This document shows positions 5,087 through 53,290 of a stretch of 53,431 bases of DNA, one piece after another. The DNA is taken from IMG/VR virus record IMGVR_UViG_3300037518_000174, positions 1 to 53,431 of that record, one strand, 5' to 3'. The DNA is from a virus (taxonomy: Duplodnaviria > Caudoviricetes). The notes under the pieces are model-generated. The model worked only from the letters and a program-made list of their open reading frames with translations. It did no database searches and was not told the DNA's origin. Position numbers and translations under genes: made by a program. Positions within the stretch are counted from its first letter, which is position 1; each line of letters starts with the position of its first letter.

Positions 5087-5141
5087 AACAAATCCCTCCT
5101 GTGAACCGAATTTCGGTCACATAGAAAAACTCACAGTTTGG

Positions 5142-5168
5142 AAAAGAGAACGGCCCCGAAGGGCCGTC
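5142..5168 (-). terminator. intrinsic terminator after capsid/endonuclease genes
   Basis: Minus strand GACGGCCC-TTCG-GGGCCGTT followed by CTCTTTTC. Confidence 0.8.
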
Positions 5169-5186
5169 ACCAGAATTGATCTATCT

Positions 5187-5996
5187 CTATCTTTCTAAGT
5201 AATCGACTGCTTTGCGCAATCGATCAATGTCGTCTTTGAAGCTGCCAAGTCCGCTATTGCAGGAAAAACACAACAAGGCACGAACTTTGCCAGTATTGTG
5301 GCAATGGTCAACAGAGAGTTCGGTTACTTTGCCGCGAACCTTTCTCTGCTCAGCATTACCACAAATAGCGCACTTGTTCTTTTGCTTCTTTCTAAGCGCT
5401 ACGTATTCTTCACGAGAAATGCCATATCTGGCCTTTCTACCATACTCTTTGTACTTTCCCGGCCTGAGCTGACGATATGCTCTTTGAAATCTCGCTCTGT
5501 ATGTTTTCTCGTCCTCTCCATCTACCTTGCAGACCATTGATTCCTTCCATACGAAGTTTCCTGGCCCTATCGGCTTTGATTCATCAGCAACAAATAGTTT
5601 GTGCTTGTCACTCGGGCGCTTGCCAATATCGGCAACAAATTGAAGAAAGTCATTCCGCCACTCGTCGCAAATCATTCCGTTCGGGCGGCTCCGCTTCATC
5701 CACATCCAAGAGTTGTATAGTGGGTGCCTTTCCTTCCTGCCCCATCCTTTTGCGCCCCAATCGTCCGGCCTAACTGACTCCGTATGCCCATTCCGCTTAA
5801 ATCTACGGTAATGCTTGTCGCACAAACCGCGAGCTAAAGATAACGAGGCACAGTCTGGAATACGGCACGGATGCCTTTCTCTTTTGGCATATTCAGTCGT
5901 ACCTCGATTGCACCACCGTCGATAGCAAGCGGAACAAAGCCCGCGAGCCACTATCTTGAGATCTCGAAGACAAGCCTTGCACGCCAAAGGAATCAC
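5187..5996 (-). CDS. endonuclease VII-family (His-Me) putative free-standing homing endonuclease with N-terminal Zn-finger repeats
   Basis: CAICG...LSVDHCHNTGKVRALLCFSCNSGLGSFKDD; two Cys-rich ARGLC repeats; HPLYNSW..MK.R motif; visibly more AT-rich than its neighbours. Confidence 0.85.
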   Translation of the reverse strand: MIPLACKACLRDLKIVARGLCSACYRRWCNRGTTEYAKRERHPCRIPDCASLSLARGLCDKHYRRFKRNGHTESVRPDDWGAKGWGRKERHPLYNSWMWMKRSRPNGMICDEWRNDFLQFVADIGKRPSDKHKLFVADESKPIGPGNFVWKESMVCKVDGEDEKTYRARFQRAYRQLRPGKYKEYGRKARYGISREEYVALRKKQKNKCAICGNAEQRKVRGKVTELSVDHCHNTGKVRALLCFSCNSGLGSFKDDIDRLRKAVDYLER

Positions 5997-6073: not shown

Positions 6074-6982
6074 TCATGCTCCGCCATTGTTGCTGTAGCA
6101 TCCGCGCGGATCAGTCCAACCGACCGAGAAGCGCCTGTAGCACTTGGCCTTGTTGTTGTCCGTATCGAAGTCTGAGTCAGCACTGAACTCAGCGCCAACG
6201 CGGTCATACCAGCAAAGACCACGGGGAGCGCTCGTCTTGATGAAGAACGCATCCGAGTCCGTCAGGTAATGATTCACCGCAACTTCAGGGACAGTGCCCA
6301 TCACTCGCAGCGCGTTGATCGCGTTGTTCGCGGTATCGTTCTGAAGCAACGACTTCAAGACCCTCGTTGACTCGAACGACAAAGCAGTCGGAATAATCAA
6401 CCGCTTCGGCATCAAAGAAATCTTGAGTCCACGCGGATTCAGCGCGTCCATGATCTGGATAGCCAGGCTCTCGATGGATGCTTCCGAAAGATCGGCACCC
6501 GAGCTAAGCGTATTCGACCATGTACCGTGAAAATCCGAGTGAGTCGTCACGCAGAGAATCGACCCATCACCCCCGGTATACCCGGAAGTGTGAGCACGAT
6601 TCAGCACGTTTGCTCCGACGTTTTCCTCCGTTTGACGCAACGAGTACGCAAGATCCCCGGTACGATCGAAGGCTTTGCCCTCGTAGAGATTGTCATCCCG
6701 CTCTGCGCGAGTGACTATCCACCCCATGCCGAACTCCGTATGCACGTAACGTGACACGTAACCCTGCGTATGGGAATCGTACTGAGTAGCCCCGCCTTCC
6801 GTCTTGGTCGGAACAAGGCCGAACCCTGAAGTCTGCACGTCCTCCTCGTAGTTCTGAGAAGAACTCTTGACATCGAAGATTTGCGTGTATTCCACAGAAT
6901 GCTCGGCGTACTTCTCGCCCCACCATGCTGCAACTCCCGGCCAGAGGGCCTTGGGATGATTGCCTGTACTTATTACAGCCAT
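6074..6982 (-). CDS. major capsid protein (HK97 fold, Mu gpT-like family)
   Basis: KALWPG...YTQIFD..SS...YEE....SGFG, PKRLIIP, NHYLTDSDAFFIKT, RFSVGWTDPRG; located after the scaffold gene. Confidence 0.9.
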   Translation of the reverse strand: MAVISTGNHPKALWPGVAAWWGEKYAEHSVEYTQIFDVKSSSQNYEEDVQTSGFGLVPTKTEGGATQYDSHTQGYVSRYVHTEFGMGWIVTRAERDDNLYEGKAFDRTGDLAYSLRQTEENVGANVLNRAHTSGYTGGDGSILCVTTHSDFHGTWSNTLSSGADLSEASIESLAIQIMDALNPRGLKISLMPKRLIIPTALSFESTRVLKSLLQNDTANNAINALRVMGTVPEVAVNHYLTDSDAFFIKTSAPRGLCWYDRVGAEFSADSDFDTDNNKAKCYRRFSVGWTDPRGCYSNNGGA

Positions 6983-8912: not shown

Positions 8913-9311
8913 CTATTCCTTGTGTACTGGCTTTCTTGCATGAAGGTCAGTGAAGTCCACGCCTTCCTCGACGACGGCGGAAATGCCTTCAGCCCGAATG
9001 AGACGGTATTGATTCCCGTCCAATCCCGGCATCTGAATACCGCCGTACTTCTCGAACGCGACGCGATCACCGAGTTGAGGTGTTCTTCCCTTGGAATCGC
9101 CGTAGCGGACGATCTGGCCCTGGGAGTCTCTTTCAACGTAGTCAACCCATGCGTCCGGGCCTTTATCGACCAGAACACCGATCGACTGCGCTAAAGCGTG
9201 CGTGTCGCCTATCGTGTCCGGTATGACGATTCCACCTGCTGTGACCTTCTCTACCTCGTCTGGCCTAATCAGTACCCGGTTCCCTATCGGGCGAATCCCC
9301 GATTGATTCAT
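8913..9311 (-). CDS. groES: co-chaperonin GroES (Cpn10)
   Basis: IRPIGNRVLIRP...TAGGIVIPD mobile loop; GDRVAFEKYGG...YRLI. Confidence 0.9.
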   Translation of the reverse strand: MNQSGIRPIGNRVLIRPDEVEKVTAGGIVIPDTIGDTHALAQSIGVLVDKGPDAWVDYVERDSQGQIVRYGDSKGRTPQLGDRVAFEKYGGIQMPGLDGNQYRLIRAEGISAVVEEGVDFTDLHARKPVHKE

Positions 9312-9564
9312 CGATGTCTCCTACTGGCTCTAATGACTTGCTCTTGAATACGTCTTCCAAGTTCTCGTAAGCAGCCAGAAGACCGAACCTGTTCGCCCGA
9401 TCCGCCATCAAGGCTTCGGCGTTCTCGAAAACGTAGGGTTGGTCTCTCAGGCCGTCATCGGCCTGTTGCTTAAGGCTTGCTATGAGGTAGAAGAAATACT
9501 CCGTAACCTGGGACTCGAACCACTCGTCAATCCGATTCTGATCCGGCCTCGGCATCTTTTTCAT
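9265..9564 (-). CDS. hypothetical protein (typical post-portal small helical protein)
   Basis: W...VT..F pattern and position between portal and groES. Confidence 0.6.
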   Translation of the reverse strand: MKKMPRPDQNRIDEWFESQVTEYFFYLIASLKQQADDGLRDQPYVFENAEALMADRANRFGLLAAYENLEDVFKSKSLEPVGDIDESIGDSPDREPGTD

Positions 9565-11734
9565 GGATCACCTTCAATCTATCTGTCAGGGCTTCAAAGC
9601 GTTTGGTAATCGAGTCGAACTGCTCTTTGGTCGCGTCCGCATCGAGCTTTCCGGCTTTGTACTGGTTGAGGATTGTTTGTGATCGATCAACCTGAACCTT
9701 GCTCTCCGCAAGCACCGCGTTCGTTTCCTGACGAGCCTTCGATTCAATGGTCTTCCTCGCCTGATCTTCGGCCTTGAGTTGAATCTCTGGATTCGGCGGC
9801 GCGGGAATCAATGGTTGTCCCTTCTCGTCGATCGGGTAGATTTCCTGCCGGCTCGGAATGTCCATCGCCTCCAACAACAGCAACTCACCCTTCACCGTGT
9901 TGTAGTGCGGGACGGTTGACATTCTTTCCGCGACGAAATGCGCCTTGCTCAGCTTCTCCATGTTGGAGAAAGCATTCGGATCGGCAGCGGGCATCAAGTC
10001 CTTCGGGTCTCCCGAGTAATCTGACTTGCCGATCTGCATCGGGCCGTCCAGGGTTTCGAAATACTTGACCGGACTCACATACTGCCGATTCAGCATGTAG
10101 AGCTTTCTCGCTTCCTTTCTGAAGGAACGGTAGATCCGCTTGAAGATCCCGTTGAATAGCTGAAGTCCCTGCTCCAGCATCGCGTGATAGTTGTATGCCG
10201 GTGTGTTTTGTCCGGGGTTTGACCCTGACATCGCATCGTTGACGCTCGACACTCTCTCGGCATAACTGATAAGCAACGACAGAAGGTTGAACAGGACAGG
10301 TGAAGGCATATTAACCGGAAGGGGAACGAGCGAGTCTTTCAGAGTTTGCCCTGCTACGTTCACCCGCTTCCATTCGTAGGGTGTATTGAATCGGATGACT
10401 CCGCCCTCGATTCTCGCGCCCCTCCCGATAAAACCGTGATTGCCGTTGTTCAAGGTTCCGGAGTCGATTAGCTGATTGATTAAGGTATTGACCGAATCGT
10501 TCAGCGGCCCCAAAAGAGCCCCCATCCCCAGATCGTAGAAACCACCATCCGGGGACGGGATGAAACCGTACTTCGTGTAGTACTCCTCGACTTCGATATT
10601 CAGGACTTTAGGATTAACTTCGTTGTCCTGCTGTAAGGCTCTGGCCTGCTCCGTCAAGGTCTGCTGTTGAGCCTTGAGCTGCATGACCATCTGTTCGGCT
10701 TCCCGAAGGGCCTGCACGTTCTGGGGGCCTTCCTTGCCTGTCGGTGCTTGGAGTTGGGTAACAATCTGCTGGACCTGAGCGTCGATCGTCTTGATCTGCT
10801 CGACGATCTGCTCGATCTTCAAGGATTGCTCGGTCTCGACTTTCGAGAATCGGTTGACGATCCTGAGACACTTCTTCGACGACTTATCGACAACGATCAC
10901 GTAGGGCTCTGGAAGTCCGTCGTCGTCCAGATCCCAGTAGCAATGTTGTTCCAGCAATGGGCGGGGCTTCTTCTTATCCTCCGTTGGCTCTCTGACTCCC
11001 TGACGTTTGTCGGAGATTTTCTTATCGCCCCTCGGCTGAATATTCCCTAGCTCTTTATCGGAATAGACGCCTCGTAACTGTCTGGCCCTGATCTCTCTAT
11101 CGTAGAGCTCAAATTCCTCGGTCTTGCGCTCGCAGTCCTCGATGGAGTTGGCGTAGTAGGAGACAACAAGGTTTTGAGGAAGGACCAGCTTGGAAATGTT
11201 GTGTCGTTTAACAGGATCGTAAAAAGACTTCTTGAACACCGTCCCGAGTATCGGAAGGGCGATCAGAGCCTTGTCGAAGTCCTCCTCCCAGTTCTCGTCC
11301 TCCTCCAACAGCTGGTAGGACATATGGTGTGAGATTCTTTGGGCTCGCGCGGCTTTCTCGCCGTTCGGGTCTTCACCGACAACCCGGTACTTGACGACCT
11401 CGGGAGGCTTGACCAACACAGGATAGGAGCGGGCAGAGAATTGAAGTGCCCCTATGGTGACGAGCGGGAACTTGACGTTGCTCGCGTTAGGCCAAGGCAC
11501 CGACTTCTTCTCGACGATCTGGAGCGCCAACTTAATGGCGTTCTCCATCCGCTCTTCCCAATCGGATCGGGATTGCTTGTCGATCTCATAGGACTCGTAG
11601 ACAGCACGGCCGATCTCGTCGGACAGTTCTTCGCCAAGCAAAGGTTCGATGTTGTCTGACTTTTGAAGCTCCCAAATAGAAAGGCCCCTTTCCGGGGCCT
11701 CTTCTTCGGTTGTCTTCGTTGCGTAGTCTGCCAT
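9527..11734 (-). CDS. portal protein (P22-like podovirus type)
   Basis: D..SR..W, PWPNASNV..P, G..FKK..YD, YGFIPS.DGGFY..G, NQLIDSGTL.N; follows terL. Confidence 0.9.
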   Translation of the reverse strand: MADYATKTTEEEAPERGLSIWELQKSDNIEPLLGEELSDEIGRAVYESYEIDKQSRSDWEERMENAIKLALQIVEKKSVPWPNASNVKFPLVTIGALQFSARSYPVLVKPPEVVKYRVVGEDPNGEKAARAQRISHHMSYQLLEEDENWEEDFDKALIALPILGTVFKKSFYDPVKRHNISKLVLPQNLVVSYYANSIEDCERKTEEFELYDREIRARQLRGVYSDKELGNIQPRGDKKISDKRQGVREPTEDKKKPRPLLEQHCYWDLDDDGLPEPYVIVVDKSSKKCLRIVNRFSKVETEQSLKIEQIVEQIKTIDAQVQQIVTQLQAPTGKEGPQNVQALREAEQMVMQLKAQQQTLTEQARALQQDNEVNPKVLNIEVEEYYTKYGFIPSPDGGFYDLGMGALLGPLNDSVNTLINQLIDSGTLNNGNHGFIGRGARIEGGVIRFNTPYEWKRVNVAGQTLKDSLVPLPVNMPSPVLFNLLSLLISYAERVSSVNDAMSGSNPGQNTPAYNYHAMLEQGLQLFNGIFKRIYRSFRKEARKLYMLNRQYVSPVKYFETLDGPMQIGKSDYSGDPKDLMPAADPNAFSNMEKLSKAHFVAERMSTVPHYNTVKGELLLLEAMDIPSRQEIYPIDEKGQPLIPAPPNPEIQLKAEDQARKTIESKARQETNAVLAESKVQVDRSQTILNQYKAGKLDADATKEQFDSITKRFEALTDRLKVIHEKDAEAGSESD

Positions 11735-13254
11735 TAGTATCCTGTGGTCATGTTCCTACCCAAATCCATGTGCTTCTCGAAAGCCTCCTGATACTCCCAC
11801 TCCTCCGCTTCCTCGGATGTGGGAGGTTCGATCATCTCGTCTACAATCAGCCCCAACCAGGCAAAGGCGTCGAACTGATCCTTGTAGGCGTACTTCGGAA
11901 ACTTCGTGATTTCTTCCTCAAAGTCCGGGTACCAATCGGCGTCCTTGTCGAACCTAACCCTTCTCGCTCGGGTTCTTGCCTGCATTCCCCGGGCACGTTT
12001 GTCCTTGTCCTTCGTGGGCGGAGCGTCGTCGATGTTGATGAACGGATTCCCGTTCTTGCCCATCTCGTTGTAGAGAACGGGTCCAATAGACTTAGCGATG
12101 TTCTCCGACTCCACTCGGAAGAAAGAGGGCTCATACGCCTTCTGGACCGCGAAGAACTCCTCGAGAATTTCAAGCGCGTCCCACCGGCCCTTTCGCACGT
12201 CAACGATGTGGAGGATTCCGTCGGAATCGACACCGCCTATCACAAAGGCGGTGTAAGCACTTCTATCCGTTTCGCCGATCGCAAGGTCTACTCCGACGTA
12301 GTACTCCTTCGTTCGACTTCGATCTTCGTCCGTCATTGGAACCAGATCGGAGACTCGGAAGTAACCCGTCGTCTCGTCAATCGGGTTGTTCAAATACTCC
12401 TGGCCGTAGATATCCAATATTCCACGGTCAGCGAAGTCCCTTCGCTCCTGTAGCCACCACTCCAATGTGTGAAGCTCGGGCCAAAGAAACTCCGTCATAT
12501 CGTGATCGTGAGCCCTGTATTTGACGGACATCCACGGATGAATGCCTGTCGAATACACCCTCAACGGTTCGATAACAGTGTCTTTCAACTTCTCGTTCGG
12601 CATCGTGCCTTCGAGGAAAGAGCCAAAACCAATGATCGTTCCTACTGCACGGATTCTGCCGTTGTTCCTGACGATCGGCTTGATGGCGCCGTACATATTC
12701 TTCAGGAACTTGTCCCTCCGGGCTTCGTTGAGCACCATTTCCTCGTCTTCGCAATCATCCATCAGGATCTCGTCGGGACGTTTTCGCTCCCACTTCAATC
12801 CCCGGATCTTCTGATCTGTTCCCCTCCCGATGACTCTCGACTTCGAGCCGTCCTTGAACTCGAAGATCAACTCAGTCTCAGTCTCCTTCTTGAACTTGTG
12901 GAACTCCATGTACTGGCGGAGTCTTTCGTTCTCCGCCAGCTCCACCTTGATCTCGTTGATGAACTGAGCCGCGTTGGTCTCGTTCGAGCTTAGAATCAGA
13001 AGATGTCTACAGGATCGAAAGCAGACCCGAAACAGCACATACGCGAACGTGATAGCCGTCGATTTCGCGTGACCCCTGGGGGCGGCGGCGGAACACTGCC
13101 TGTGCTCGGACAGAAACAGCGCCCACAATTCTCTATGGAAAGCCGGAGTCGGACGCGGCTCGTCGTATCGATCCAGTAGAAATTCGTTGGTGAAACCTTC
13201 TAGCGCCTCTGCAAACTCCCAATCCTGTTGTGTTAGGTTGGGTATGCGCTCCAT
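11734..13254 (-). CDS. terL: terminase large subunit
   Basis: Walker A APRGHAKST, Walker B RPDEILMDDCE, QEYLNNP, RNase H-like GVDLA, and FP...KDQFDA. Confidence 0.95.
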   Translation of the reverse strand: MERIPNLTQQDWEFAEALEGFTNEFLLDRYDEPRPTPAFHRELWALFLSEHRQCSAAAPRGHAKSTAITFAYVLFRVCFRSCRHLLILSSNETNAAQFINEIKVELAENERLRQYMEFHKFKKETETELIFEFKDGSKSRVIGRGTDQKIRGLKWERKRPDEILMDDCEDEEMVLNEARRDKFLKNMYGAIKPIVRNNGRIRAVGTIIGFGSFLEGTMPNEKLKDTVIEPLRVYSTGIHPWMSVKYRAHDHDMTEFLWPELHTLEWWLQERRDFADRGILDIYGQEYLNNPIDETTGYFRVSDLVPMTDEDRSRTKEYYVGVDLAIGETDRSAYTAFVIGGVDSDGILHIVDVRKGRWDALEILEEFFAVQKAYEPSFFRVESENIAKSIGPVLYNEMGKNGNPFINIDDAPPTKDKDKRARGMQARTRARRVRFDKDADWYPDFEEEITKFPKYAYKDQFDAFAWLGLIVDEMIEPPTSEEAEEWEYQEAFEKHMDLGRNMTTGY

Positions 13255-16145: not shown

Positions 16146-16436
16146 CTACAAATCCTCGGTGCTGACTTGGTTGGTGCTCAAAAACTCGTCTTCGGGCTCA
16201 GGGCTCAACTGCGCTGTGTGCCGCTCGCCCCGTGCCCTGAGTAGATCCTGGGGGTGCCGGGATTCGATGAACTCAGGCAATACCCAGAGTCCGTCCCATT
16301 GCTCTACCAGCTCGCCCCGCTTGGCCCTGAAGCCTGACCTATCGCAGATGTCGTATGTGCTCGGATGCTCTTGGGCATCGGGGTTGGTCTCGGAGTAGTC
16401 CGAGAATGTGCCTGCGGGCTTCTCAGAGTCGCTCAC
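16146..16436 (-). CDS. small virion-associated protein, paralog of 43098..43463 (probable GTG start at 16436)
   Basis: SDSEKPAGTFSDYSETN...ICDRSGFR...GLWVLPEF..SRHPQ; GTG overlaps the upstream TGA. Confidence 0.75.
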   Translation of the reverse strand: MSDSEKPAGTFSDYSETNPDAQEHPSTYDICDRSGFRAKRGELVEQWDGLWVLPEFIESRHPQDLLRARGERHTAQLSPEPEDEFLSTNQVSTEDL

Positions 16437-16780
16437 GCGCAATCGCTGTCACAGACGGAAATGATATGACCCGACTCCACACCTAGGATTTTCTCGGCAT
16501 CGGCCGGTATCCAGTGTGAGCCCGTGGTCGCATTCGTCCCGCCAGGGCTGATGTTGTAGAAGGTCTTTCCGTCACAGATGATCCCTATGAACCGCGTGGT
16601 CTGCGCAAAAGGGGCAGAATCAACAGCGGTCGAGAAATCATCAAGATGCTGCTCTGGCCTGTCACCGTCATCGTGTGCGGCCGGAATATTGACGTTCGCA
16701 ACATCGGTGTACTCGATAATGTGGCAGTCGGTCGCCCATGCACTGACAGGAAATAGGAAAATCAGTAGAAATCGCTTCAT
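16433..16780 (-). CDS. signal-peptide-bearing paralog of 51660..51959 (putative spike-base protein)
   Basis: Sec-type signal MKRFLLIFLFPVSAWA; the mature part aligns with 51660 (S.PF...T, ATT...W.PAD, V..GH.ISV). Confidence 0.8.
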   Translation of the reverse strand: MKRFLLIFLFPVSAWATDCHIIEYTDVANVNIPAAHDDGDRPEQHLDDFSTAVDSAPFAQTTRFIGIICDGKTFYNISPGGTNATTGSHWIPADAEKILGVESGHIISVCDSDCA

Positions 16781-16783
16781 GGT

Positions 16784-18814
16784 CTATATCCCAAGATTGA
16801 TGAATCCACCACTGACCCCGCCCGCATCCTGACACACCCCACCTACGGCGAGCTGGATGGTGCTCACGAAGTCAGTCGCCAGAATCGTTTGGCTATCGAC
16901 GTTTCCAGTGCCCTGATCCGAGCCACAGGCCCGCGTGGTCGTTACCGTGAAGCCCTGCCCTTCGAGGGTAGAGGTTGCGGTTGCTTCCGCATTCCCAACC
17001 TGGCTAGCCACGGTATCGACAGTGACCGAAAGCCTCCCGGTAGAATCCGTCGTCAAAGTCCCGTCAGACGCCCGGAAAACGATCAGGTCGTCCGTTTCGT
17101 CCATGTCCGGTGTCCCCTGGAACTCGGTCATCGAGATGCTGAGACCCGATGTGGTGGCGTTTCCTATCGTCCCTATGTCCACATCGTCCAGGTCGGTGCA
17201 GGAAGCGGAAGAATCGAGGTGCAGCCTTGAGTTGAAAGGATCGATCCACAGGACCCGATGCCACTTGTCATTGTCGGCGTCGATCTGGATATGATCGCCA
17301 GCGGTGTAACCGGATTCGTCGGTGACTACTAGCGAGGAGCCTGATTGCGTCCCGTCACAGGTGGACTCTGCTGTTGGGGCCGAGCGTTGCTGATAGCTGT
17401 AACTCGTCGCGCCTGAGAAATACCCATCGGATAAATCAATGGCCGCCATCGCCTCGTCTTTGGCGAGCACGAAGTTCTGTAGCGTTGCGGCTGTACCGTA
17501 TTCAGGGGGAGGATCGACTAGCTCAAGTGTCGCCTCGGACCCCGAATAAGCTGAACTCGACGAGTAATCGCAGTCAACAGCCGTCACGTCCTCTGGAGCA
17601 ATAAACGACCCATCAGCATTGAGCGTAATATCGTCTATGTCAGACGTATCGGCCATGACGTTGCCGATAGCCATTTGATCGCCGTCAGTCAGATCGGTAG
17701 GAAAGCCCCAACACCTACCGGGATTGCCTTCCTCGTCGAATGGTGTATCGGTCGGACCCCAGACGCCTGAAAGAAAGGCTGTTCCGATGTTGACGAAATC
17801 GACACCTGTCTGAGCCGTGGCCGTGATCTCTAACGATCCGTCAGCCGCCGAGTTGTTCGTGACCGTCAGATTGCAGGTGCCGTACTTCAGGCCGCTGGTA
17901 ACACCGAACCCGACGATATCCTCGTCGAATTGAATCGAGGTATCAGCCCACGAATCAATGCTTGTCAGTTCTGCCGTCTGCCCTGCACACGTCAACTCTA
18001 CCGTTCCGGCCCCTTGAGTCGCACCGAACCCAGTCCCGGTAACGACGACGTTTAGCTGCCCTGCGGTAATCGATTCGTCGGTGTCTACATCGGTGACTGT
18101 TACAGTAGAGGCAACAGCCTGATTGAATACGGCCGCACAAAGAACCTGATCCCCTAAGCCGCTATCCGAGTCTCCTACAACGCTGACAGTAAGACCGGCT
18201 GTTCCGGTCGTTAGCGCATCCGCCCCAGAATAAGCATGGGCTGACGGATGAGCATCGAACGCTTCAGTTAAGTTTGTCCATGCTGCTGTGTAATCTCCGC
18301 CTGGGTCGCTTCGGCTCAAAACACCAACAGCAAAACCACCGTCGACGCTTGTCAGGCTTGCCGATAAAGAGATAAGCGAATTTGTGTTGTTATCTTCGTC
18401 AGCGTCCGAATTGGCAACAACGCTTGAAGTCGCTAAATCAGTTACCGTATAGGCGTAATAGATATCATTGCCATTGCCCGTTGCCGCTGGAACGATGACG
18501 GCCGTCGTATCGTTAGGGTTTGCCAGATACCAGATAGAGCAACTGGCCTCGTCACTTGTACCAGTGTAATCGCCATCCATGACCGCCAGCGTGAGACCGA
18601 CAGAATCATGCGTGATACTGCTCGGTGGCTCCGCTGTATCTGAGGCTCGCCTGTGCGCCCCGACGACAATCAAGCCCTCGCCGGCAGCAACCGCAGGCCC
18701 GGTAACGGTCGGGTCCGAATACTCGTTGGAGACCGCGATATCGGCCTGCCCGATTATGGGAAATAGGGCACAGAAAAGGACCGGAATCAGGCTATACTTG
18801 AGCCGCCTAATCAT
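16784..18814 (-). CDS. secreted multidomain beta-rich protein (IPT/TIG-like, Ig-like, C-terminal PASTA-like); probable start at ATG 18814
   Basis: Signal MIRRLKYSLIPVLFCALFPIIGQA; TIG-like VVVTGTGFGATQG.GTV...SW.DTSI; PASTA-like VGNAEATATSTLEGQGFTV...GNVDSQ. The 120 aa before this ATG overlap other genes and look non-coding. Confidence 0.8.
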   Translation of the reverse strand: MIRRLKYSLIPVLFCALFPIIGQADIAVSNEYSDPTVTGPAVAAGEGLIVVGAHRRASDTAEPPSSITHDSVGLTLAVMDGDYTGTSDEASCSIWYLANPNDTTAVIVPAATGNGNDIYYAYTVTDLATSSVVANSDADEDNNTNSLISLSASLTSVDGGFAVGVLSRSDPGGDYTAAWTNLTEAFDAHPSAHAYSGADALTTGTAGLTVSVVGDSDSGLGDQVLCAAVFNQAVASTVTVTDVDTDESITAGQLNVVVTGTGFGATQGAGTVELTCAGQTAELTSIDSWADTSIQFDEDIVGFGVTSGLKYGTCNLTVTNNSAADGSLEITATAQTGVDFVNIGTAFLSGVWGPTDTPFDEEGNPGRCWGFPTDLTDGDQMAIGNVMADTSDIDDITLNADGSFIAPEDVTAVDCDYSSSSAYSGSEATLELVDPPPEYGTAATLQNFVLAKDEAMAAIDLSDGYFSGATSYSYQQRSAPTAESTCDGTQSGSSLVVTDESGYTAGDHIQIDADNDKWHRVLWIDPFNSRLHLDSSASCTDLDDVDIGTIGNATTSGLSISMTEFQGTPDMDETDDLIVFRASDGTLTTDSTGRLSVTVDTVASQVGNAEATATSTLEGQGFTVTTTRACGSDQGTGNVDSQTILATDFVSTIQLAVGGVCQDAGGVSGGFINLGI

Positions 18815-18972
18815 CGGAGAGAACCATGCTGAAGAAAATCCGAGACTGGCTGTTTCCAACACGCCGGACGTACACCGAAAAAACCGATCACGTCTGCGGC
18901 CAGCACTACGCTCTCGACGCGAAAACTGGCGATCCCTACTGCGCCGTATGCAATAACGATCTCGCCTGACAT
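18811..18972 (-). CDS. 53-aa hydrophobic peptide (MSGEIVIAYG...)
   Basis: Fills the gap exactly, with a TGATG overlap upstream and an ATGA overlap downstream. Confidence 0.5.
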   Translation of the reverse strand: MSGEIVIAYGAVGIASFRVESVVLAADVIGFFGVRPACWKQPVSDFLQHGSLR

Positions 18973-20951
18973 CACCACCCCAAGCTCGAGAAGTTTTCGA
19001 GCTGCAAGGTGTTGTACAGCTTGCCAAGGAGCGTAGAGAGATCGTCTCCCTGCGCGTCCGACCAGATGATGTTGTCGTAACGGTGCTCGACGGAATCCAG
19101 AGTAGAGATACCGTTGTTCTGCCACGGGTCCTGATACGCGCCCATTGAGTGGGCCTGAATGTGTGGGCCTGCATTGGGACTGGCGTTCTCGAACTGGTAG
19201 ACGCCCGGATGAATCGTCGATCCGTTCCAAATGAATTTCGCCTCCGTCGGTTCTACACCTGCTAGCTCAGCGTAGAAGTGGAACTCCCCATTACCCCCTT
19301 CGGCGTCCGTCCTCGAATCGGGACGGAATATCAGGTAGATATCAAGTACCAGCCCTTCCATGCTGGCCTCGCCGAAATCGGATGCCGTTGCCATCGTGGA
19401 TGTGACGCCACCACCGCCGCTACAAGTGCCGCCACTGAAAAACCCTGCCGACTTGTTGCGCCGTGACAGAGTGTCGATTTCGTCCTCGGAGATACCGATA
19501 GACCAGTTGGGATTGACCTGGTTATGCCACGGACATCCAATCTCCGTCTGCCAGCTCGTGAAATGCGGTCGTAGGTTTTGCCACTGGTGCATTCCGCCGC
19601 CGTCGTCCCGAACTTTGGTGATTGTGGTCGAGTAGGCGATTCCGAGAAGATCGGGATTACAACCTGCTCCGGTACAAGTCGCAGCTTGCTCGGACGTGTA
19701 GACGTAGTTGTGGGTGTACTCGGAAGTGTCTCTGGTTGGAACAGGAGCACTCCCGACATACGTTGCCGCGAAAAACAACGTATCTTTCGGCAGCCGAATC
19801 TCGGCGCGTCCGCAGGTTCCAGAGTCTTCTAGGAACGCACGAAAGGCGTTACCGCTCTTGGGACCGCCGCTCGCTATGATTTCCGTGATGCTGCAAGCCT
19901 GACCCGCACCTGCACCGACGCGGGTCCAGACATTGTTGAAGTCTGCCGAAGTCGTCTTTACACCGGCTGAATAGCCCTCCCAATCCTCCATGAACAGGAT
20001 TTGACTCGACGAAAGCAAATCACCGCCACCGCCGCCGCCAGCCAAGTCGGTCGTTCCCGAAGCGCAAGAACTCCAATCAGACTCATTGGCCGCAGGAGAA
20101 GAATCAACGGCAAAGACTTTGAACCAGTAGGTTGTCGAAGCAGTTTTGCCGCCAGAAGTCCTAGACGTGTCAGGCGGTATCGTGGCAGAGCCGAAACTCT
20201 CGTTGCTTTCACATGCGCTCAGGCTCGTGCTTGAGCTTGAAACGTAGTAGGCCGCTATTCCAGAAGCGTCCGTGGAAGCATCCCACGAAATTTCCAGACA
20301 GGTGTCGCCGTTGGTCGAGCAGGGCAGGACCGTTACGTTACTTGGAACTGTAGGTGCAGTCGTATCGGAAGGGTCGGCAACGTCGAAAGTAAAAGTCTCG
20401 TCGGTCGGTGTATTCGTGCCAGTAGGGGATTGAGGCGTACACGTCAGGGTGATATCGACAGATTCCTCAGTGTCCGGTGTTACCGTGAGAACGCCTGAGG
20501 TAAAATCGAACTCGGCGCCCATTTCACCGGAGATTTCATCGGTCTCGCCGGCAGCAATCGTGACAGCAACCGTTACGCCCTCGCCGGCCTGGCACCAATC
20601 GGTGAAGTTGAACTCGTATGGAGTCCCTATTTGTAGGGCTTGAGTCGTATCGACAGGAGTCCCTTCCTCGTTCTCCCACCGGGCTGTAAAGACGAAAGCG
20701 AACTCGGGATTGGTCGAGCGATTACCGCCGATCACAGCTATCGTGACTGAGTTCTGCCCTTCTCGGGCTTGTGGCTGTGCATTCGCAACTCCAATCAGGG
20801 ATCGCAGATACACGATGGCCGCACTGACGCACGTATCGACAGTCGCCTCGCAGCTCCAAGTGTCCTCTCGTGTGAGCGTGACTTGTGCAAGCACGGGCGC
20901 GAGCATGACGAATGCGAACACGCCGGCTAGGCGGGGGATGAATCGGTTCAC
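18972..20951 (-). CDS. secreted protein with Ig-like, fibronectin type III and polysaccharide-lyase/ConA-like domains
   Basis: Signal MNRFIPRLAGVFAFVMLAPVLA; FN3 DTTAPTVPSNV...ISWDASTD...Y...YWFKVFAVD...NESDWS; Gly linker; C-domain LFMEDWE...RAEIRL...YDNI. Confidence 0.8.
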   Translation of the reverse strand: MNRFIPRLAGVFAFVMLAPVLAQVTLTREDTWSCEATVDTCVSAAIVYLRSLIGVANAQPQAREGQNSVTIAVIGGNRSTNPEFAFVFTARWENEEGTPVDTTQALQIGTPYEFNFTDWCQAGEGVTVAVTIAAGETDEISGEMGAEFDFTSGVLTVTPDTEESVDITLTCTPQSPTGTNTPTDETFTFDVADPSDTTAPTVPSNVTVLPCSTNGDTCLEISWDASTDASGIAAYYVSSSSTSLSACESNESFGSATIPPDTSRTSGGKTASTTYWFKVFAVDSSPAANESDWSSCASGTTDLAGGGGGGDLLSSSQILFMEDWEGYSAGVKTTSADFNNVWTRVGAGAGQACSITEIIASGGPKSGNAFRAFLEDSGTCGRAEIRLPKDTLFFAATYVGSAPVPTRDTSEYTHNYVYTSEQAATCTGAGCNPDLLGIAYSTTITKVRDDGGGMHQWQNLRPHFTSWQTEIGCPWHNQVNPNWSIGISEDEIDTLSRRNKSAGFFSGGTCSGGGGVTSTMATASDFGEASMEGLVLDIYLIFRPDSRTDAEGGNGEFHFYAELAGVEPTEAKFIWNGSTIHPGVYQFENASPNAGPHIQAHSMGAYQDPWQNNGISTLDSVEHRYDNIIWSDAQGDDLSTLLGKLYNTLQLENFSSLGW

Positions 20952-49171: not shown

Positions 49172-50659
49172 TTATGCAGCCCTGTTCTGTTCGTCAGCCC
49201 AGGCCAGACGACCCCAAGCACCCTTCACCACGAGCTTTCTTTTCGAGTCGCTGTAGACCCTGAATATCCAGTTACGTCCGCTTCCCAGGCGTCTCCGAAT
49301 GAGTCGGTGGTAGTACTCGTCTACAGCCGCTTCTCCGATATCTAGAGAAACGCCTGAACTGAATGTGTGACCTCCGTCCTTGCTCCAGTAAACAGTCAAC
49401 TGGCGGTCGTTCCCTGTATCTCCTGAATCAATTACGCCTTCTTCACAGTCAATTTGTATCCGTGCGAACCTGAGACGATCCTCGTTCTCAGCCGCAATGC
49501 CTGGGCCGGTCAACTGTCTTTCCATATTGGCACTGGCCCATGTGTATACGGTCTCGCTCAAGGCAAACAGTTTTCCGGTCTCAGCATGATCGCCAACGAT
49601 ATGCGTCCCGCCACTCCAGCCTGAACAGAAGGCGTGAACGCCACCGTAGTACCGGATCGGTGCATCGTTGCTGAAAGCGCCGCTCCACTGCGCCCATTCA
49701 AAACCAGACCCCTGAACGGAAGCGTCATACGCAAACGTCGCGTTACCTGTCGGGAAGGAAAGGACGTAGAACGGATGTCCGTCTATCGTCATTGCAAACC
49801 CTTCTGCATCTGAAACCGTCGAATACTGTTCCCACTTTCGGCTAAGCTCTGGGGTCGATATGACTTGCGGAGCGTAACCATCGCCTACACGGACAACCTC
49901 AAGCTGCCCTCGTTTGCTGGAAGACAACAAGACGACTGTGTTGTCGTAGATACAAGCACTACCCGGGGCAGAAATTCCGGTCTCGAACTGAGTGTACTTG
50001 TCAAAGACTTGGGTTGAAGTTCCTTTGTTGTACCAGACTTCGCTTTGTTCCTTCCCGAACAGAAATATTCTGTCTCTTTCAACGAGAATCTTCTGGATCG
50101 TGCTTGTCAAAGAAAGTCCAACGCCAAAACTTGCGGTATCCCACGAGGTCCCGTTTCCGAGATCCGACCACCAGAACTTACCTACCGTAGTCGGATCGTT
50201 GACGAGAAACCGATTGTTGATATGAGCCACGGTTGTAGCCGCATCGGGAAATTCGGTATCGGTAATATCCGATCCCGTCGTGGTCGCGATGTCGTAGTGA
50301 AGGCCCGTATTCCCATCTACCGTGACAATCGCTTGCTCTGTAGGATTAAGCGCCATCTCGACACGGCCGGAAGTCGTCGCCAATACGTCTCTCGCGGTCT
50401 CGACCGCTCCCGAGGTGACGCTGTACAAGTCGTTATCGGAAACGACGTAGAGAAGGCTTCCCTTCGGCTCGTAGAGCATGGCCCGGATATCCCCCGTATT
50501 TACGAGGGTGTCGAACAGAGTCGCCCCATGAACGGGAAGCATCGCCCCCTGATGACTTTCACCCGGAGCCGGATGCTCGTAGTAGTAGTTGATGCACTGC
50601 TGGGACGAGGTATTGGTCGAGATGCCTTCATAGGCACCGCCGAACAAGGGGATTCGCAT
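49172..50659 (-). CDS. tail hub / packaged-DNA stabilisation protein, P22 gp10-like
   Basis: MRIPL.GGAY...Q.CIN.Y, SEVWYN.G, GHPFYVL.FP, WSKDGGHTF...G....Y..R...RRLG..R. Confidence 0.9.
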   Translation of the reverse strand: MRIPLFGGAYEGISTNTSSQQCINYYYEHPAPGESHQGAMLPVHGATLFDTLVNTGDIRAMLYEPKGSLLYVVSDNDLYSVTSGAVETARDVLATTSGRVEMALNPTEQAIVTVDGNTGLHYDIATTTGSDITDTEFPDAATTVAHINNRFLVNDPTTVGKFWWSDLGNGTSWDTASFGVGLSLTSTIQKILVERDRIFLFGKEQSEVWYNKGTSTQVFDKYTQFETGISAPGSACIYDNTVVLLSSSKRGQLEVVRVGDGYAPQVISTPELSRKWEQYSTVSDAEGFAMTIDGHPFYVLSFPTGNATFAYDASVQGSGFEWAQWSGAFSNDAPIRYYGGVHAFCSGWSGGTHIVGDHAETGKLFALSETVYTWASANMERQLTGPGIAAENEDRLRFARIQIDCEEGVIDSGDTGNDRQLTVYWSKDGGHTFSSGVSLDIGEAAVDEYYHRLIRRRLGSGRNWIFRVYSDSKRKLVVKGAWGRLAWADEQNRAA

Positions 50660-51657
50660 CAGTTGTAACCCAACTCGAAAGCAACATCTGCGTTCTCGAC
50701 AAGGAAGTCGAAGAACTCCTCCGACGATTCCTTGGCGAACTTCTCTAGTCGCCTCATCTGTACTTCAGGGATTCCGTACTCCGGTCCCAGCTCATAGGCG
50801 AGCCACCACGCCAGCGGGTTAACACCATCAGCAGGAATATCGAGATTGTTCGATGTCGCGTCGAGATCCTGCATGTGCGTCGTGTAGTCGAGGACAAGAG
50901 AATGAACGCTGCCCTCACCACCCGTAGGCCATAGATGCAACTCTGGATTTGTCGTCGCCTGACGGAGATAGACACTCACCGGAACGCCTGTCTGTAGCTT
51001 GGTCGGATACGTCAAGTATTCCTGCTCACCGATGATGCTCAACGGTGTGTCTATACCCTCCATCAATCCCGCATCGGTCGCCGCATTGTCGAGATCCGTG
51101 ATCCGTCGTTGAGCAAACTTGAGCTTGACCAGCTTGTGAGAGAGATCGGCGGAAGTCGGCCAGGTATAGACCGCGTTACCAGAAGAAGCGGAATCGTCCA
51201 GCCCTGCCGTCAAGGTCACGGCATTGGCCGACGGAGCTCCGTTGATCGTGGTATCGGTCAAAGTACCGTCGTCGTTCTCGACGAGAATCCTGTCGGCGTT
51301 CGACATATTCGTGTCGTCAGTGACGGTAATCGCCGTGTCACTCTCTGAAGCAGCCGACGCAAGTGTGGTCGTGTAGTACTGCGAGGTGAAAAGTGCAGTT
51401 CCCGAAGTGCCGAACGTGTACTTGGAAACCGTGCCTGGATCGGGAAGGAACAAATGCCCCGTCTTCCTCAGCCAGATCCCGGCCCCTTTCTTGTTCCAGC
51501 CCTTGACGATCAGATTGAGAACGACAAGCGCATCGGTCTGCTCGTCAGTATCTATCGTCTCATTGGCGTCGAACTCGCTGAGACGCTTTAAGGAACGCTC
51601 GATGATATTGGCTGCCGTATACGACTCGGTGTAATTCCAACTTGCGCTGAAAGCCAT
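50659..51657 (-). CDS. head-tail adaptor, P22 gp4-like, with an inserted beta domain
   Basis: A..II.RSL..L...DAL..LN.....W...G; G.P..VY...LWP; L.W.LA.EL.PEYG. Confidence 0.8.
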   Translation of the reverse strand: MAFSASWNYTESYTAANIIERSLKRLSEFDANETIDTDEQTDALVVLNLIVKGWNKKGAGIWLRKTGHLFLPDPGTVSKYTFGTSGTALFTSQYYTTTLASAASESDTAITVTDDTNMSNADRILVENDDGTLTDTTINGAPSANAVTLTAGLDDSASSGNAVYTWPTSADLSHKLVKLKFAQRRITDLDNAATDAGLMEGIDTPLSIIGEQEYLTYPTKLQTGVPVSVYLRQATTNPELHLWPTGGEGSVHSLVLDYTTHMQDLDATSNNLDIPADGVNPLAWWLAYELGPEYGIPEVQMRRLEKFAKESSEEFFDFLVENADVAFELGYN

Positions 51658-51659
51658 AA

Positions 51660-51959
51660 CTATGCACTCACCACTACGCTAATCACATGACCCGCACGCA
51701 CCAGAAAGTACTCCCAATTGTCAGCGGGCACCCACGGATCGCTCGTAGTAGCCGTTGGGTTCACACCGAATGAATAATGAAACTGGCTGTCTGATTGAAT
51801 GCGGACACACTTGGTGTCCAAACTGAAAGGGATGCTTTTCGTCTCAGTCGAATAGCTAACCGTCTGTACGTTAAGACTCGGCTGTTTTGCGATAAGGATG
51901 ACCTGCCCCGACTTATAGGTGCCGGGGTAAGAAAATTCCTCTACAACAAGCGTTGCCAT
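51660..51959 (-). CDS. small virion beta protein (putative spike base); cytoplasmic paralog of 16433..16780
   Basis: Located in the structural operon; aligns with the mature part of 16433; no signal peptide. Confidence 0.75.
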   Translation of the reverse strand: MATLVVEEFSYPGTYKSGQVILIAKQPSLNVQTVSYSTETKSIPFSLDTKCVRIQSDSQFHYSFGVNPTATTSDPWVPADNWEYFLVRAGHVISVVVSA

Positions 51960-53015
51960 CTACATCCCCATTCCCATTCGAGACATAACCATTCGATGCT
52001 TTTTCCTGAAAAACCCTTGGCCTTGGTTTGGTTCACCCAAACTCGGAAACGATACTTGACTATCCGCCTCTACGTTTTCTGCTGACAGTACGTGCACCTG
52101 ACCTACTGACGGATACGTAACCTCAGACGCCGACTCGATATCCTCAGCCGATAGCTCGTCCGTACCGCTGCTCTCGCTTAGGGCCGGAGCCGTTAACTCG
52201 GAATCGCTCTCTACATCGTCCGCTAGAAGTCCATGCTCTTGGCCTAGAGCCGGAGTCGATACTTCCGACACAGATTCAGTATCAGCAGCCAGAATCACAT
52301 GGACCTGGCCTAACGAGGGTGAAGTTATCTCGCTTAACGACTCAACATCCTCGGCGAGAAGGATGTTGCTTTCGCTCGCCGTAGGAGCCGATACTTCGGT
52401 ATCGCTCTCTACGTCATCCGCGAGTAGCGCGTGGGTCTGACCTAAGGCCGGAGCGGAGACTTCAGACGCACTCTCAACGTCGCTCGCAAGTAATGCGTGC
52501 TCTTGTCCTATGGCTGGAGAAGTGACCTCAGAAGATGACTCGACATCTTCAGCCAATAGGTCATCTGTAGGAACACCTGGCGTATAAGTAACACGTACCG
52601 TGAAGGCCGACCAAGAACACGTCTCGGCATCGTCCTTCATATTCGCGGAATAGTTCGCGGAATACGCGATCTCATCCCAATCGGCAGATACTGCCGTGCC
52701 AGGCGCCGGGGAAGGCGAGGAGCCATCGGCTATCGTGTCGCTACCGACACTAGCGCCTAGAGATGCAGAGCAGGCCGCTGCTGCATCGCTGCCGAAATCA
52801 CCCCAAACGGCGGTACCGCCCGTGGTTTGAATCCGCCAGCGTATGCCTATCGTGTCGTCTGTCGCGCCGTCCGAGTTGAGTGACGGCGTTCCAACAACAG
52901 ATACGTCATCAATCGTCGCGCCGTCGAAATCTCCGGGCGGTGTGATTCCGTTGCTTGCAGACCCAGCGGCACCTACTCCACTACCAGCCGGAGCTGTGAT
53001 ATCCCAGGTAGCCAC
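51960..53015 (-). CDS. acidic fibre-like virion protein with eight ~22-aa repeats and C-terminal MGMGM tail
   Basis: N-terminal globular domain, then L(L/S)AxDVESxSEVxxPx(L/I)GQxH repeats and a basic/hydrophobic tail. Confidence 0.75.
   Translation of the reverse strand: MATWDITAPAGSGVGAAGSASNGITPPGDFDGATIDDVSVVGTPSLNSDGATDDTIGIRWRIQTTGGTAVWGDFGSDAAAACSASLGASVGSDTIADGSSPSPAPGTAVSADWDEIAYSANYSANMKDDAETCSWSAFTVRVTYTPGVPTDDLLAEDVESSSEVTSPAIGQEHALLASDVESASEVSAPALGQTHALLADDVESDTEVSAPTASESNILLAEDVESLSEITSPSLGQVHVILAADTESVSEVSTPALGQEHGLLADDVESDSELTAPALSESSGTDELSAEDIESASEVTYPSVGQVHVLSAENVEADSQVSFPSLGEPNQGQGFFRKKHRMVMSRMGMGM
52030..52562 (-). repeat. eight degenerate ~66-bp (22-aa) tandem coding repeats
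   Basis: e.g. ALLASDVESASEVSAPALGQTH / ALLADDVESDTEVSAPTASESN / ILLAEDVESLSEITSPSLGQVH. Confidence 0.9.
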
Positions 53016-53290
53016 TAGCAGTTAATCCCGCATTCCTTACAAACACCGCGATTCGGCCCTTCTCCGTCAGGCCAGTCTCTACAGTTGAGCCCACTGACCC
53101 ATGCAGTCTTTGTGGCTTCCTTGTATCTGGGATCGGCTATAACGGCATCCCAATTACCAAGCTCAGCCCTTAATGCGCAGGCCCACTTGCGGAAGTAGCC
53201 GGTCTCGTCGGTATAGTCTCGTATTAAGAACGGACACTCTTTGCCGTTGACGTAACAGCAATGATCGCTTCCGTTGCCGGTGCATGGCAT
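53015..53290 (-). CDS. Cys-cluster protein, YkgJ-like
   Basis: C......CC...CPFL...C...CRDWP...CKEC pattern resembles the YkgJ CxxCxxCC family. Confidence 0.5.
   Translation of the reverse strand: MPCTGNGSDHCCYVNGKECPFLIRDYTDETGYFRKWACALRAELGNWDAVIADPRYKEATKTAWVSGLNCRDWPDGEGPNRGVCKECGINC

Follow-up and report, generated by a model that had tools for sequence, protein, structure and literature searches.

The window analysed here, meaning the whole stretch of DNA at its full length of 53,431 bp (record IMGVR_UViG_3300037518_000174), is a complete viral genome with a 127-bp direct terminal repeat at its ends. At positions 51660-53015 of the minus strand it holds a gene for a fibre-like protein of 351 amino acids (aa), followed directly by a gene for a 99-aa protein, and a second pair of the same layout lies at 16433-18814. 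Both fibre-like proteins end in a short peptide of hydrophobic residues and Gly, and the two small proteins belong to a large family whose genes are statistically linked with termini of this kind. We propose that the peptide would plug the fibre into the small protein, for which the terms socket and base are used below. The features of the two pairs are as follows.

51960-53015, minus strand: fibre-like protein, 351 aa, GTG start; globular N-terminal domain, eight 22-residue repeats, basic linker and C-terminal Met/Gly peptide
52566-53015, minus strand: N-terminal fibre domain of ~150 aa (MATWDIT...RVTYTP), conserved among relatives
52038-52565, minus strand: eight tandem 22-residue repeats (LLAxDVESxSEVSxPxLGQxHx), residues 151-326, one with a 3-residue insert; presumed shaft
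51963-52037, minus strand: linker GEPNQGQGFFRKKHR and terminal peptide MVMSRMGMGM (peptide 51963-51992), with five Met and two Gly; proposed docking peptide
51660-51959, minus strand: 99-aa beta-sandwich protein, proposed socket ('base'); its start abuts the fibre stop
16784-18814, minus strand: second fibre-like protein of 676 aa, counted from its likely start MIRRLK...; ends in the peptide GGFINLGI (16787-16810)
16433-16780, minus strand: 115-aa exported paralog of the small protein; signal peptide, Cys after the cleavage site, CDSDC end

Results

Two pairs of fibre-like and small proteins

The 351-aa open reading frame (ORF) ends ...GFFRKKHRMVMSRMGMGM (...RMVMSRMGMGM), and in the junction DNA, ...GGA ATG GGG ATG TAG ATG GCA..., there are 0 nucleotides (nt) between the TAG stop of the fibre gene and the ATG of the 99-aa gene. 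A regular expression places repeat starts at residues 153, 175, 197, 219, 263, 288 and 310, and the eighth, at 241, was recognised by eye; the 22-residue repeats of the protein are not detected as a tandem repeat in the DNA. The long ORF of the second pair (16784-19174) ends ...GGVSGGFINLGI (...GGFINLGI), and its start is probably the Met at 18814 (MIRRLKYSLIPVLFCALFPIIGQA/D), which would give an N-terminus that looks by eye like a signal peptide. Here the junction reads ...GGG ATA TAG ACC ATG, with a 3-nt gap between the fibre stop and the 115-aa ORF, whose N-terminus (MKRFLLIFLFPVSAWA/TDC) is likewise signal-peptide-like by eye. The two small proteins are paralogs, with 24 of 65 residues identical (37%, E-value (E) 1e-10).

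A loose rule was used to describe such ends: at least four L, I, V, M or F and at least two Gly among the terminal 10 residues, with no D, E or P. It is passed by 5 of the 224 termini of the window (112 ORFs of at least 100 aa), and two of these five are the C-termini of the two fibre-like proteins; the other three are N-termini on alternative start codons and are taken to be spurious. An earlier note on this DNA had claimed that both fibre ORFs end in hydrophobic-Gly peptides and are followed within 0-3 nt by a paralog of about 100 aa, and the coordinates, the junctions, the 37% identity and this chance test bear it out.

A large family of small beta-sandwich proteins

Neither the 99-aa nor the 115-aa protein has a sequence match in Pfam, PHROGs, NCBIfam or the PDB. 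An exhaustive search with a four-sequence profile finds 833 representative clusters at E <= 1e-3, 30 of them at E <= 1e-10, with both window proteins among the seeds or matches and with lengths that are nearly always 86-145 aa. The consensus of the family is MA.L.I.EY...EP...Q.VTFTT..QSAAF...T.FIR...DA..H..FG.NPTATT...PAD..EYFGV.PG.KIA. When 150 members were scanned, PHROGs returned two families with one member each and Pfam a weak DUF7243 match in seven members and nothing else; no chaperone family was matched in either collection. The family profile gave six matches among PDB sequences, all to cytochrome bo3 subunit II at E 0.39 or worse and none relevant, and the ESM Atlas gave only clusters of viral 'hypothetical proteins', plus one DUF7243 cluster at a template-modelling (TM) score of 0.66.

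The AlphaFold2 model of the 99-aa protein, made from a 150-sequence alignment, is an eight-strand beta-sandwich with a mean confidence (pLDDT) of 94.7 and a predicted TM score (pTM) of 0.84. It replaced a first model from a four-sequence alignment (pLDDT 77), which had yielded only noise in Foldseek and VIA-align. With the good model, Foldseek found no close solved relative (best E 0.34). VIA-align, run on 48,161 representatives and also on Foldseek's top 1000, gave its best score, Z 5.8, to iridovirus ORF158L, alongside crystallins and the spike protein P1 of PM2 (Z 5.6), and further weak neighbours are A223 of Sulfolobus turreted icosahedral virus (STIV; Z 4.5), an SH1 chain (Z 4.3) and a turret chain of Haloferax tailed virus 1 (HFTV1; Z 4.0). 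On the tool's own scale, values of 4.0-5.8 are 'middling' and within noise, and the likeness of the predicted fold to viral vertex and turret jellyrolls is suggestive only.

The small proteins were also compared with the spike base of the Rhodobacter gene transfer agent (RcGTA), Rcc01079, of which the phage RcapNL carries a homolog (PMC5026251). Gene 29 of RcapNL matches the NCBIfam family NF048002, 'spike base protein', at E 7.9e-31, and the next gene (30) starts MGLGLGIGLGL. With that match as the positive control, the 99-aa and 115-aa proteins and the further family members P0183 and P0126 gave no match to NF048002 at E <= 0.1; the single NCBIfam match of P0126 is weak and unrelated. A 150-member profile of the small-protein family aligned to RcapNL gp29 with an hhalign probability of 0.2%. 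In view of these two results, the word 'base' denotes an analogy and not a relation by sequence.

Homologs are found in three distinct cultured phage genomes (four records), namely Pelagibacter phage HTVC106P, Synechococcus phage MinM2 and near-identical Planktothrix relatives. With the 99-aa protein as query, a word-indexed search gave a single protein, 96% identical, on a contig of 864 bp, and a metagenome scan gave 216 pattern matches and no relative, so that no close homolog of the window pair was at hand for a comparison of the tails. A tree of 36 base proteins joins the 99-aa protein (87/81) to a clade of loci that have N-terminal peptides or no partner; 16 of the 33 inner branches are open, and the tree therefore supports no conclusion on the number of polarity switches.

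Hydrophobic-Gly termini beside the base genes

The neighbours of 50 base genes were inspected, the two of the window and 48 further ones from IMG/VR contigs, metagenome contigs and two cultured phages; loci are given as L numbers. At 80% identity the 50 genes form 37 clusters, and L059 was added separately as the 38th. Under the loose rule, 12 of the 37 clusters have an adjacent gene with a hydrophobic-Gly terminus that faces the base gene. Four carry it at the C-terminus of the upstream gene (the two of the window, L008 ...RFISGMGQLGLR and L010 ...SGMFGIGKAGLR) and eight at the N-terminus of the downstream gene (L012 MFGLGLGKLG, L013 MFGLRIGAMGRVG, L015, L017/18, L026 MFGVGQIGALG, L027 MYGMGMSRMGCLSG, L030 and L045 MFGRLGLNFGRLG). 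Near-misses picked out by eye raise the number of peptide-bearing clusters to about 20 of 38, L059 included. They comprise an upstream gene that ends ...GGFISNFGKLGLRG (L009), genes that start MFASTVRFGRLG (L011), M.G.RMGAMGTVG (L022) and MLRLGRLGGVLGRLG (L059), C-termini ...GVSIG[LP] upstream of exported base genes (L039, L040), FGLGGEGANFGRLG right after the signal peptide of an exported protein downstream of an exported base (L028), and MAFGRLGADFGRMG at the N-terminus of an upstream gene (L047).

The association is stronger than the background of such ends. Among 1078 termini of ORFs of at least 100 aa in 29 loci, 16 pass the loose rule and 6 of the 16 face a base gene; Fisher's test of 6/58 against 10/1020 gives an odds ratio of 11.7 and p = 1e-4; the 58 is an upper limit, on the assumption that each locus has at most two facing termini. 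Of 1564 termini from 46 loci, 21 fit the stricter pattern [FLIMV]G.[FLIMV]G, and 10 of these 21 are in genes adjacent to a base gene.

The same short cores recur at both kinds of terminus and in the same N-to-C direction. FGKLG is C-terminal in L009 and N-terminal in L017/L018, and M[GV]MSRMG appears as MVMSRMG at the C-terminus in the window and within GMGMSRMG at the N-terminus of the protein encoded downstream of the base homolog in L027. A shared core with one chain direction speaks for a peptide that binds and against an N-terminal sorting signal. Apart from the peptide, the partners are unrelated to one another and look like fibres or lectins: that of L026 has a sialidase-like BNR_4 domain, and those of L013 and L027 match phrog_5939 'tail protein'/phrog_34853. 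Many of the peptides contain, by eye, five hydrophobic residues (five Met in the window; F, L, I, M, V in L013; F, I, M, L, L in L008). Judged from these sequence patterns, binding of the terminal peptide to the small protein, taken by itself, is likely.

In partners of the N-terminal type (L011-L013, L022, L027) a second motif, ...G.WYDPSDLSTL..., is found ~20-35 residues after the peptide, and this motif may mark a conserved neck that joins the docking peptide to the variable body.

The fibre lineage

The 351-aa protein has no match in Pfam, PHROGs or NCBIfam or among PDB sequences. A word-indexed search (8000 scored candidates) finds 171 similar proteins at E <= 1e-3, mostly through the repeats. 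The ends of 120 listed relatives are very diverse: a crude classifier sorts them into 18 with an acidic stretch followed by an LLLLAA-like end, 7 Arg-rich, 7 hydrophobic-Gly-like and 88 other, and many of the last group have further domains. In an alignment of 17 proteins that share the N-terminal domain, all 25 invariant columns fall within residues 1-145. The related loci L036-L038 have only this domain in common with the fibre, and their shafts differ (504, 1145 and >908 aa). Because the N-terminal domain is conserved while shafts and tails vary, the tail appears to be a swappable module that is not conserved in the fibre lineage.

The gene directly upstream overlaps the fibre start codon.

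53015-53290, minus strand: 91-aa Cys-rich protein with 10 Cys (MPCTGNGSDHCCYVNGKEC...)

This protein has no family match in Pfam or PHROGs. A homologous MPC.GN..DHCC... ORF lies directly upstream of the fibre relative in all three loci inspected (L036-L038), and the protein looks like a fixed partner of the N-terminal fibre domain.

A second recurrent C-terminal tail was observed in fibres with 22-residue repeats, an acidic run followed by five to seven terminal hydrophobic residues (...EQEDDDEVLLLLIA, ...EDEDDIELLLLAA). This is the end type of the 18 of 120 listed proteins mentioned above, among them P0008, P0033, P0055, P0060 and P0120, and a 95-aa ORF in L040 (861-1148) has it too (...EEEEDFAILIMAVLN). 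This tail too may serve for docking, to a different partner.

The exported branch

In the second pair the exported genes extend upstream.

18972-20951, minus strand: 659-aa protein, N-terminus signal-peptide-like, a short way upstream of the exported fibre

The 659-aa protein has no PHROG or Pfam match. Its signal peptide, like those of the 676-aa and 115-aa proteins, was judged by eye. The three genes are consecutive on the minus strand (16433-20951), all three products are signal-peptide-like at the N-terminus and Cys-rich, and the terminase gene lies ~3 kb downstream of the run. Exported genes likewise follow one another ahead of the exported base homolog of L039; in L040, where ORFs were read by eye, the exported pair is likewise just upstream of terminase and portal.

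Exported base genes with exported, peptide-bearing partners are found in the window, L028, L039 and L040. The genes upstream of the exported base homologs in L039 and L040 end ...EGVSIGL and ...IRGVSIGP, similar to the end of the 676-aa protein; ...GGFISNFGKLGLRG of L009 resembles it too. Of 149 top family representatives, 25 have a signal-peptide-like N-terminus, and 17 of the 25 have both of the Cys that are invariant in an alignment of 14 signal-peptide-bearing members. When one genome of each prokaryote species was searched for the exported subfamily, 14 pattern matches and no relative came up.

Genomic context of the base genes

Base genes follow the major head protein gene in L012 and L031, the portal gene in L011, L017 and L022, the large terminase gene in L029, genes for protease-like proteins in L019 and L024 and a virion structural protein gene in L021; the HTVC106P homolog lies two genes after the head protein. 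The MinM2 homolog is the exception: it is one of a cluster of tail-fibre genes and follows a 'tail fiber domain-containing protein'. In the window the pair is directly upstream of the phrog_12985 and P22 gp10-like genes and not at the distal end of a tail-fibre module.

A subfamily that begins MATLWIREY... (L044:4001-4315, L046:1690-2004, L047:4001-4312) has its socket gene between ORFs read by eye as large terminase and portal, where an accessory structural gene would not usually be expected; of the three loci, L047 alone offers a candidate partner.

Gene layout of the window

The late genes of the window are mostly on the minus strand. Read across the ends of the record, their order runs through several small genes, the 91-aa Cys-rich gene, the 351-aa gene and the 99-aa gene, and genes for ejection-type proteins come after the P22 gp10-like gene. 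From late-gene content and order the genome is podovirus-like, with the fibre/small-protein pair between head and neck genes.

11734-13254, minus strand: large terminase, named by eye from the translation
9527-11734, minus strand: portal, named by eye from the translation
8913-9311, minus strand: Cpn10 (GroES-like co-chaperonin), PF00166 E 2.3e-12
6074-6982, minus strand: major head protein, weak PHROG head-protein matches
5187-5996, minus strand: HNH-like gene, by eye
4112-5086, minus strand: 324-aa protein, no match
2915-3559, minus strand: methyltransferase, PF08241 E 3e-13
2310-2918, minus strand: 2OG-Fe(II) oxygenase, PF13640 E 1e-10
50659-51657, minus strand: 332-aa protein, phrog_12985 E 8.7e-13, directly downstream of the 99-aa gene
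49172-50659, minus strand: P22 gp10-like head-closure protein, phrog_578 'head closure Hc3' E 8.6e-68

The phage has its own GroES-like co-chaperonin gene (8913-9311) between the portal and the scaffold and head genes. A block that looks non-structural (1789-5996, minus strand) is inserted so that it separates the major head protein gene from the fibre region; besides the HNH-like gene, the 324-aa gene, the methyltransferase and the oxygenase it holds two further genes without a match, and it could be a protein- or glycan-modification cassette that acts on virion proteins. A weak third match to the 99-aa protein (query residues 53-90, 42% identity, E 0.003 within the genome) lies in the 250-aa ORF 997-1749 on the minus strand; it is probably due to chance, or may be a diverged beta-sandwich domain.

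Discussion

A fibre proposed to plug into a socket ring

We infer that the 99-aa protein probably forms a ring and that the 351-aa protein, made of an N-terminal globular head, the eight-repeat shaft and the basic linker, would be held in it non-covalently by its last ten residues, MVMSRMGMGM. Five subunits are suggested for the ring because the peptide has five hydrophobic side chains and because RcGTA provides a precedent. The Met side chains would occupy hydrophobic pockets in the ring, with Gly and Ser letting the chain turn. The ring would most likely be on the capsid, because the gene pair is in the head and neck part of the genome, and such a seat would make the 351-aa protein a head fibre, which may serve the first, reversible contact with the host surface. 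Since the peptide-coding stretch and the socket gene are contiguous, they may form one cassette, attached in some relatives to an upstream fibre gene at its 3' end and in others to a downstream fibre gene at its 5' end; this choice of position would explain why the order of the genes usually matches the polarity of the peptide. The second pair (16433-18814) would be an exported copy of the same arrangement.

For this reading as a whole, that is, a fibre docked by its terminal peptide in a socket ring, the ring on the capsid and the peptide and socket gene as one cassette, we estimate a probability of about 0.55. The head-module context, together with the RcGTA precedent, favours a seat on the capsid, and that the rings occupy the capsid vertices in particular is a suggestion that we place a little under even odds. 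Complex modelling with four base copies and fibre residues 312-351 gave a score of 0.00 and a mark of 0.32, without controls, and weighs on neither side of the question of binding; a ring of four, moreover, cannot close as a pentamer would.

A broader version would make the hydrophobic-Gly peptide and the ~100-aa socket a portable cassette that recombination can fuse to either end of any fibre or lectin gene, so that phages would have a universal means of mounting host-binding proteins, with an exported, disulfide-bonded branch (~1/6 of the family) that assembles outside the cytoplasm. The products of this branch could be cell-surface fibres on infected cells, or decorations that fold in the periplasm and join the virion at lysis. 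We consider this version doubtful. We know of no such plug-and-socket cassette or exported assembly in tailed phages.

Several observations weigh against the proposal that the fibre is plugged into a capsid-bound ring. What is conserved among the fibre relatives is the N-terminal 150-aa domain and the upstream Cys-rich protein, not the tail, and the relatives in L037 and L038 have neither the tail nor a base gene downstream (the gene that follows the L037 fibre aligns to the small-protein family with an hhalign probability of 0.1%). Most phage fibres are anchored to the virion by their conserved end; by that rule the tail and the 99-aa protein would be distal. The tails of the window pass the loose rule only and fail both a requirement of at least three Gly with hydrophobic neighbours and the pattern [FLIMV]G.[FLIMV]G; judged by these patterns they are weak versions of the motif. 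Under the loose rule 25 of 37 clusters lack a qualifying neighbour, and about 18 of 38 still have none after the additions by eye, including six near-identical loci (L049-L054), L044/L046, HTVC106P and MinM2; the socket protein can thus exist without an adjacent peptide-bearing gene. In L047 the peptide MAFGRLGADFGRMG is at the N-terminus of an upstream 254-aa gene, away from the terminus that faces the base, and the facing rule is therefore not absolute. The small-protein family has no sequence relation to Rcc01079 by NF048002 or hhalign, and no RcGTA chain is among the rows listed by Foldseek or VIA-align for the 99-aa model. Lastly, exported members could not be mounted on capsids that are assembled in the cytoplasm, so that a seat on the capsid cannot serve the whole family.

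Alternative explanations

The first of these points can be turned into an explanation of its own, in which the fibre is anchored by its N-terminal 150 aa, perhaps with the 91-aa Cys-rich protein, and the 99-aa protein sits at the far tip, as a receptor-binding tip or a retained chaperone, like gp38 on gp37 of T4 or Tfa on Stf of lambda. Such an arrangement would fit the conservation of the N-terminal domain and of the Cys-rich gene (17 proteins; three of three loci) beside variable shafts and C-termini, the lack of a base in L037/L038 and the place of the MinM2 homolog in a tail-fibre cluster; small genes right after fibre genes often encode chaperones or adhesins. It conflicts with the at least eight clusters in which a downstream fibre carries the peptide at its N-terminus and has its variable, lectin-like parts towards the C-terminus (BNR_4 covers residues 91-273 of 684 in L026), because there the socket would be at the conserved, anchor-like end. 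Socket genes moreover belong to head modules, where the genes for the major head protein, the portal or the terminase are their neighbours, and not to the ends of tail modules; no chaperone or adhesin family is matched in Pfam, PHROGs or NCBIfam; and it is the socket family that is conserved and not its partners, whereas a receptor-binding tip should show the opposite. We regard a distal position as unlikely.

The enrichment of the motif at base-facing termini (6 of at most 58 against 10/1020, p = 1e-4) speaks against a further alternative, namely that there is no physical link at all: the 99-aa protein would be an independent head-decoration or neck protein, the tails would be low-complexity sequence, and adjacency would reflect shared late expression. 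About half of the family clusters, which have no peptide-bearing neighbour, are in keeping with it, as are the gene that stands alone between terminase and portal in L044/L046 (by eye), the location between two small proteins in L049-L054 and the weakness of the motif in the window. It leaves unexplained that both paralog pairs of one genome carry a tail, that unrelated partners share short cores, at the N-terminus in some and at the C-terminus in others, and that a sequence-unrelated pair, that of RcGTA and RcapNL, has the same layout, with binding proven in RcGTA. The absence of any link is somewhat less probable than a distal position.

That the small protein is the C-terminal domain of the fibre, made by readthrough of the TAG codon or by a frameshift, is suggested by the abutting stop and ATG and by a frameshift fusion once proposed for rcc01079/rcc01080 by Hynes et al. 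(PMC5026251), and it is highly improbable, given that most relatives have the base first and the fibre second with gaps of -4 to +41 nt, that many stand-alone genes begin with the conserved MA.L.I.EY, that the exported paralog has its own signal peptide, and that RcGTA proved to have two separate proteins (PMC7296036).

With the plugged fibre as the favoured reading, the remaining proposals of the earlier note can be placed. Docking by the logic of RcGTA gains from the recurrence of the peptide/neighbour unit across relatives and finds no support in a sequence relation of the small protein to Rcc01079. Docking from the C-terminus looks like a true reversed form of the N-terminal docking of RcGTA, as the cores shared by both termini suggest, and is not exclusive, for relatives also use the N-terminus. 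The idea that C-terminal docking leaves the N-terminus free for a signal peptide is weakened by L028, in which the motif comes right after the protein's own signal peptide, and an expected conservation of the tail in homologs was not found among the 17 aligned fibre relatives, whose conserved part is the N-terminal 150 aa.

Implications

The RcGTA structure is the only one known to show a flexible head fibre fixed to a five-fold vertex by a short repetitive peptide. Our results suggest that this docking principle is widespread, in a family of at least 833 clusters that is almost wholly viral and entirely unannotated, and with the peptide at either end of the fibre. If so, a large block of viral 'hypothetical proteins' would gain names and a testable function, and a hydrophobic-Gly terminus beside a socket gene would serve as a rule for recognising head-fibre and host-binding genes in metagenomic phages. 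The unit would also offer a compact (~350 bp) natural tag for the display of proteins on phage particles. The exported branch raises a separate question, that of the role of phage fibre assemblies in the periplasm or on the cell surface. A literature search turned up RcGTA, phage 7-7-1 and HFTV1 and no description of the small-protein family or of C-terminal docking; supplements were outside its scope, and it is no proof of absence from print.

Comparison with known systems

In phages T4 and lambda, the small chaperone or adhesin genes gp38 and Tfa lie directly after fibre genes. The 99-aa gene has the same position after a fibre gene, and binding to the C-terminal end is presumed in both cases; it differs in that it matches no such family, lies in a head-module context and has relatives whose partner peptide is at the N-terminus of the product of a downstream gene. 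The fibre of adenovirus, a trimer, docks by a short N-terminal peptide on a pentameric vertex protein, with a symmetry mismatch. The adenovirus penton base is a large capsid protein and has no sequence or fold link to the window proteins.

DUF7243 (PF23891), a viral domain family that offers no functional explanation, is the only named family with a signal, in 7 of 150 members and at a best E of 3.5e-4. The DUF7243 cluster of the Atlas aligns to residues 23-99 of the Atlas model (TM 0.66), and the 99-aa and 115-aa proteins of the window do not match DUF7243 at E <= 0.1.

The turret of HFTV1 consists of a hexameric base, gp30, on the capsomer, which carries a trimeric glycan-binding head, gp31 (PMC12494034). 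A chain of the turret entry 8QPG is the weak neighbour of the 99-aa model noted above, at Z 4.0 and within noise. The HFTV1 base differs in being a hexamer on hexons and not on vertices, and the part of its description on which we draw mentions no terminal hydrophobic-Gly peptide (PMC12494034).

The closest parallel is RcGTA, whose head spike is described as a pentamer of Rcc01079, a jellyroll protein, with one copy of Rcc01080, residues 2-10 of which (IALGLGLGL) form a five-point star in hydrophobic pockets (PMC7296036). In RcGTA (Rcc01079/GhsA and Rcc01080/GhsB) and in genes 29 and 30 of RcapNL, as in the window, a small (~85-100 aa) all-beta protein is encoded beside a fibre- or lectin-like gene of ~150-700 aa. 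The terminus that faces the small gene alternates between hydrophobic residues and Gly, with about five hydrophobic residues (MGMGM in the window, LGLGL in RcGTA), and both kinds of gene pair behave as a mobile accessory unit in phages. The window peptide is at the C-terminus of the upstream fibre, whereas that of RcGTA is at the N-terminus of the downstream fibre; Met replaces Leu; and the window family is far larger (833 clusters) and includes exported members. The pentamer and the capsid seat are proven for RcGTA and would follow by analogy for the window proteins. What appears to be new is that a docking principle known from one structure, that of RcGTA, would recur in a much larger, unannotated family unrelated in sequence, with reversed polarity and an exported branch.

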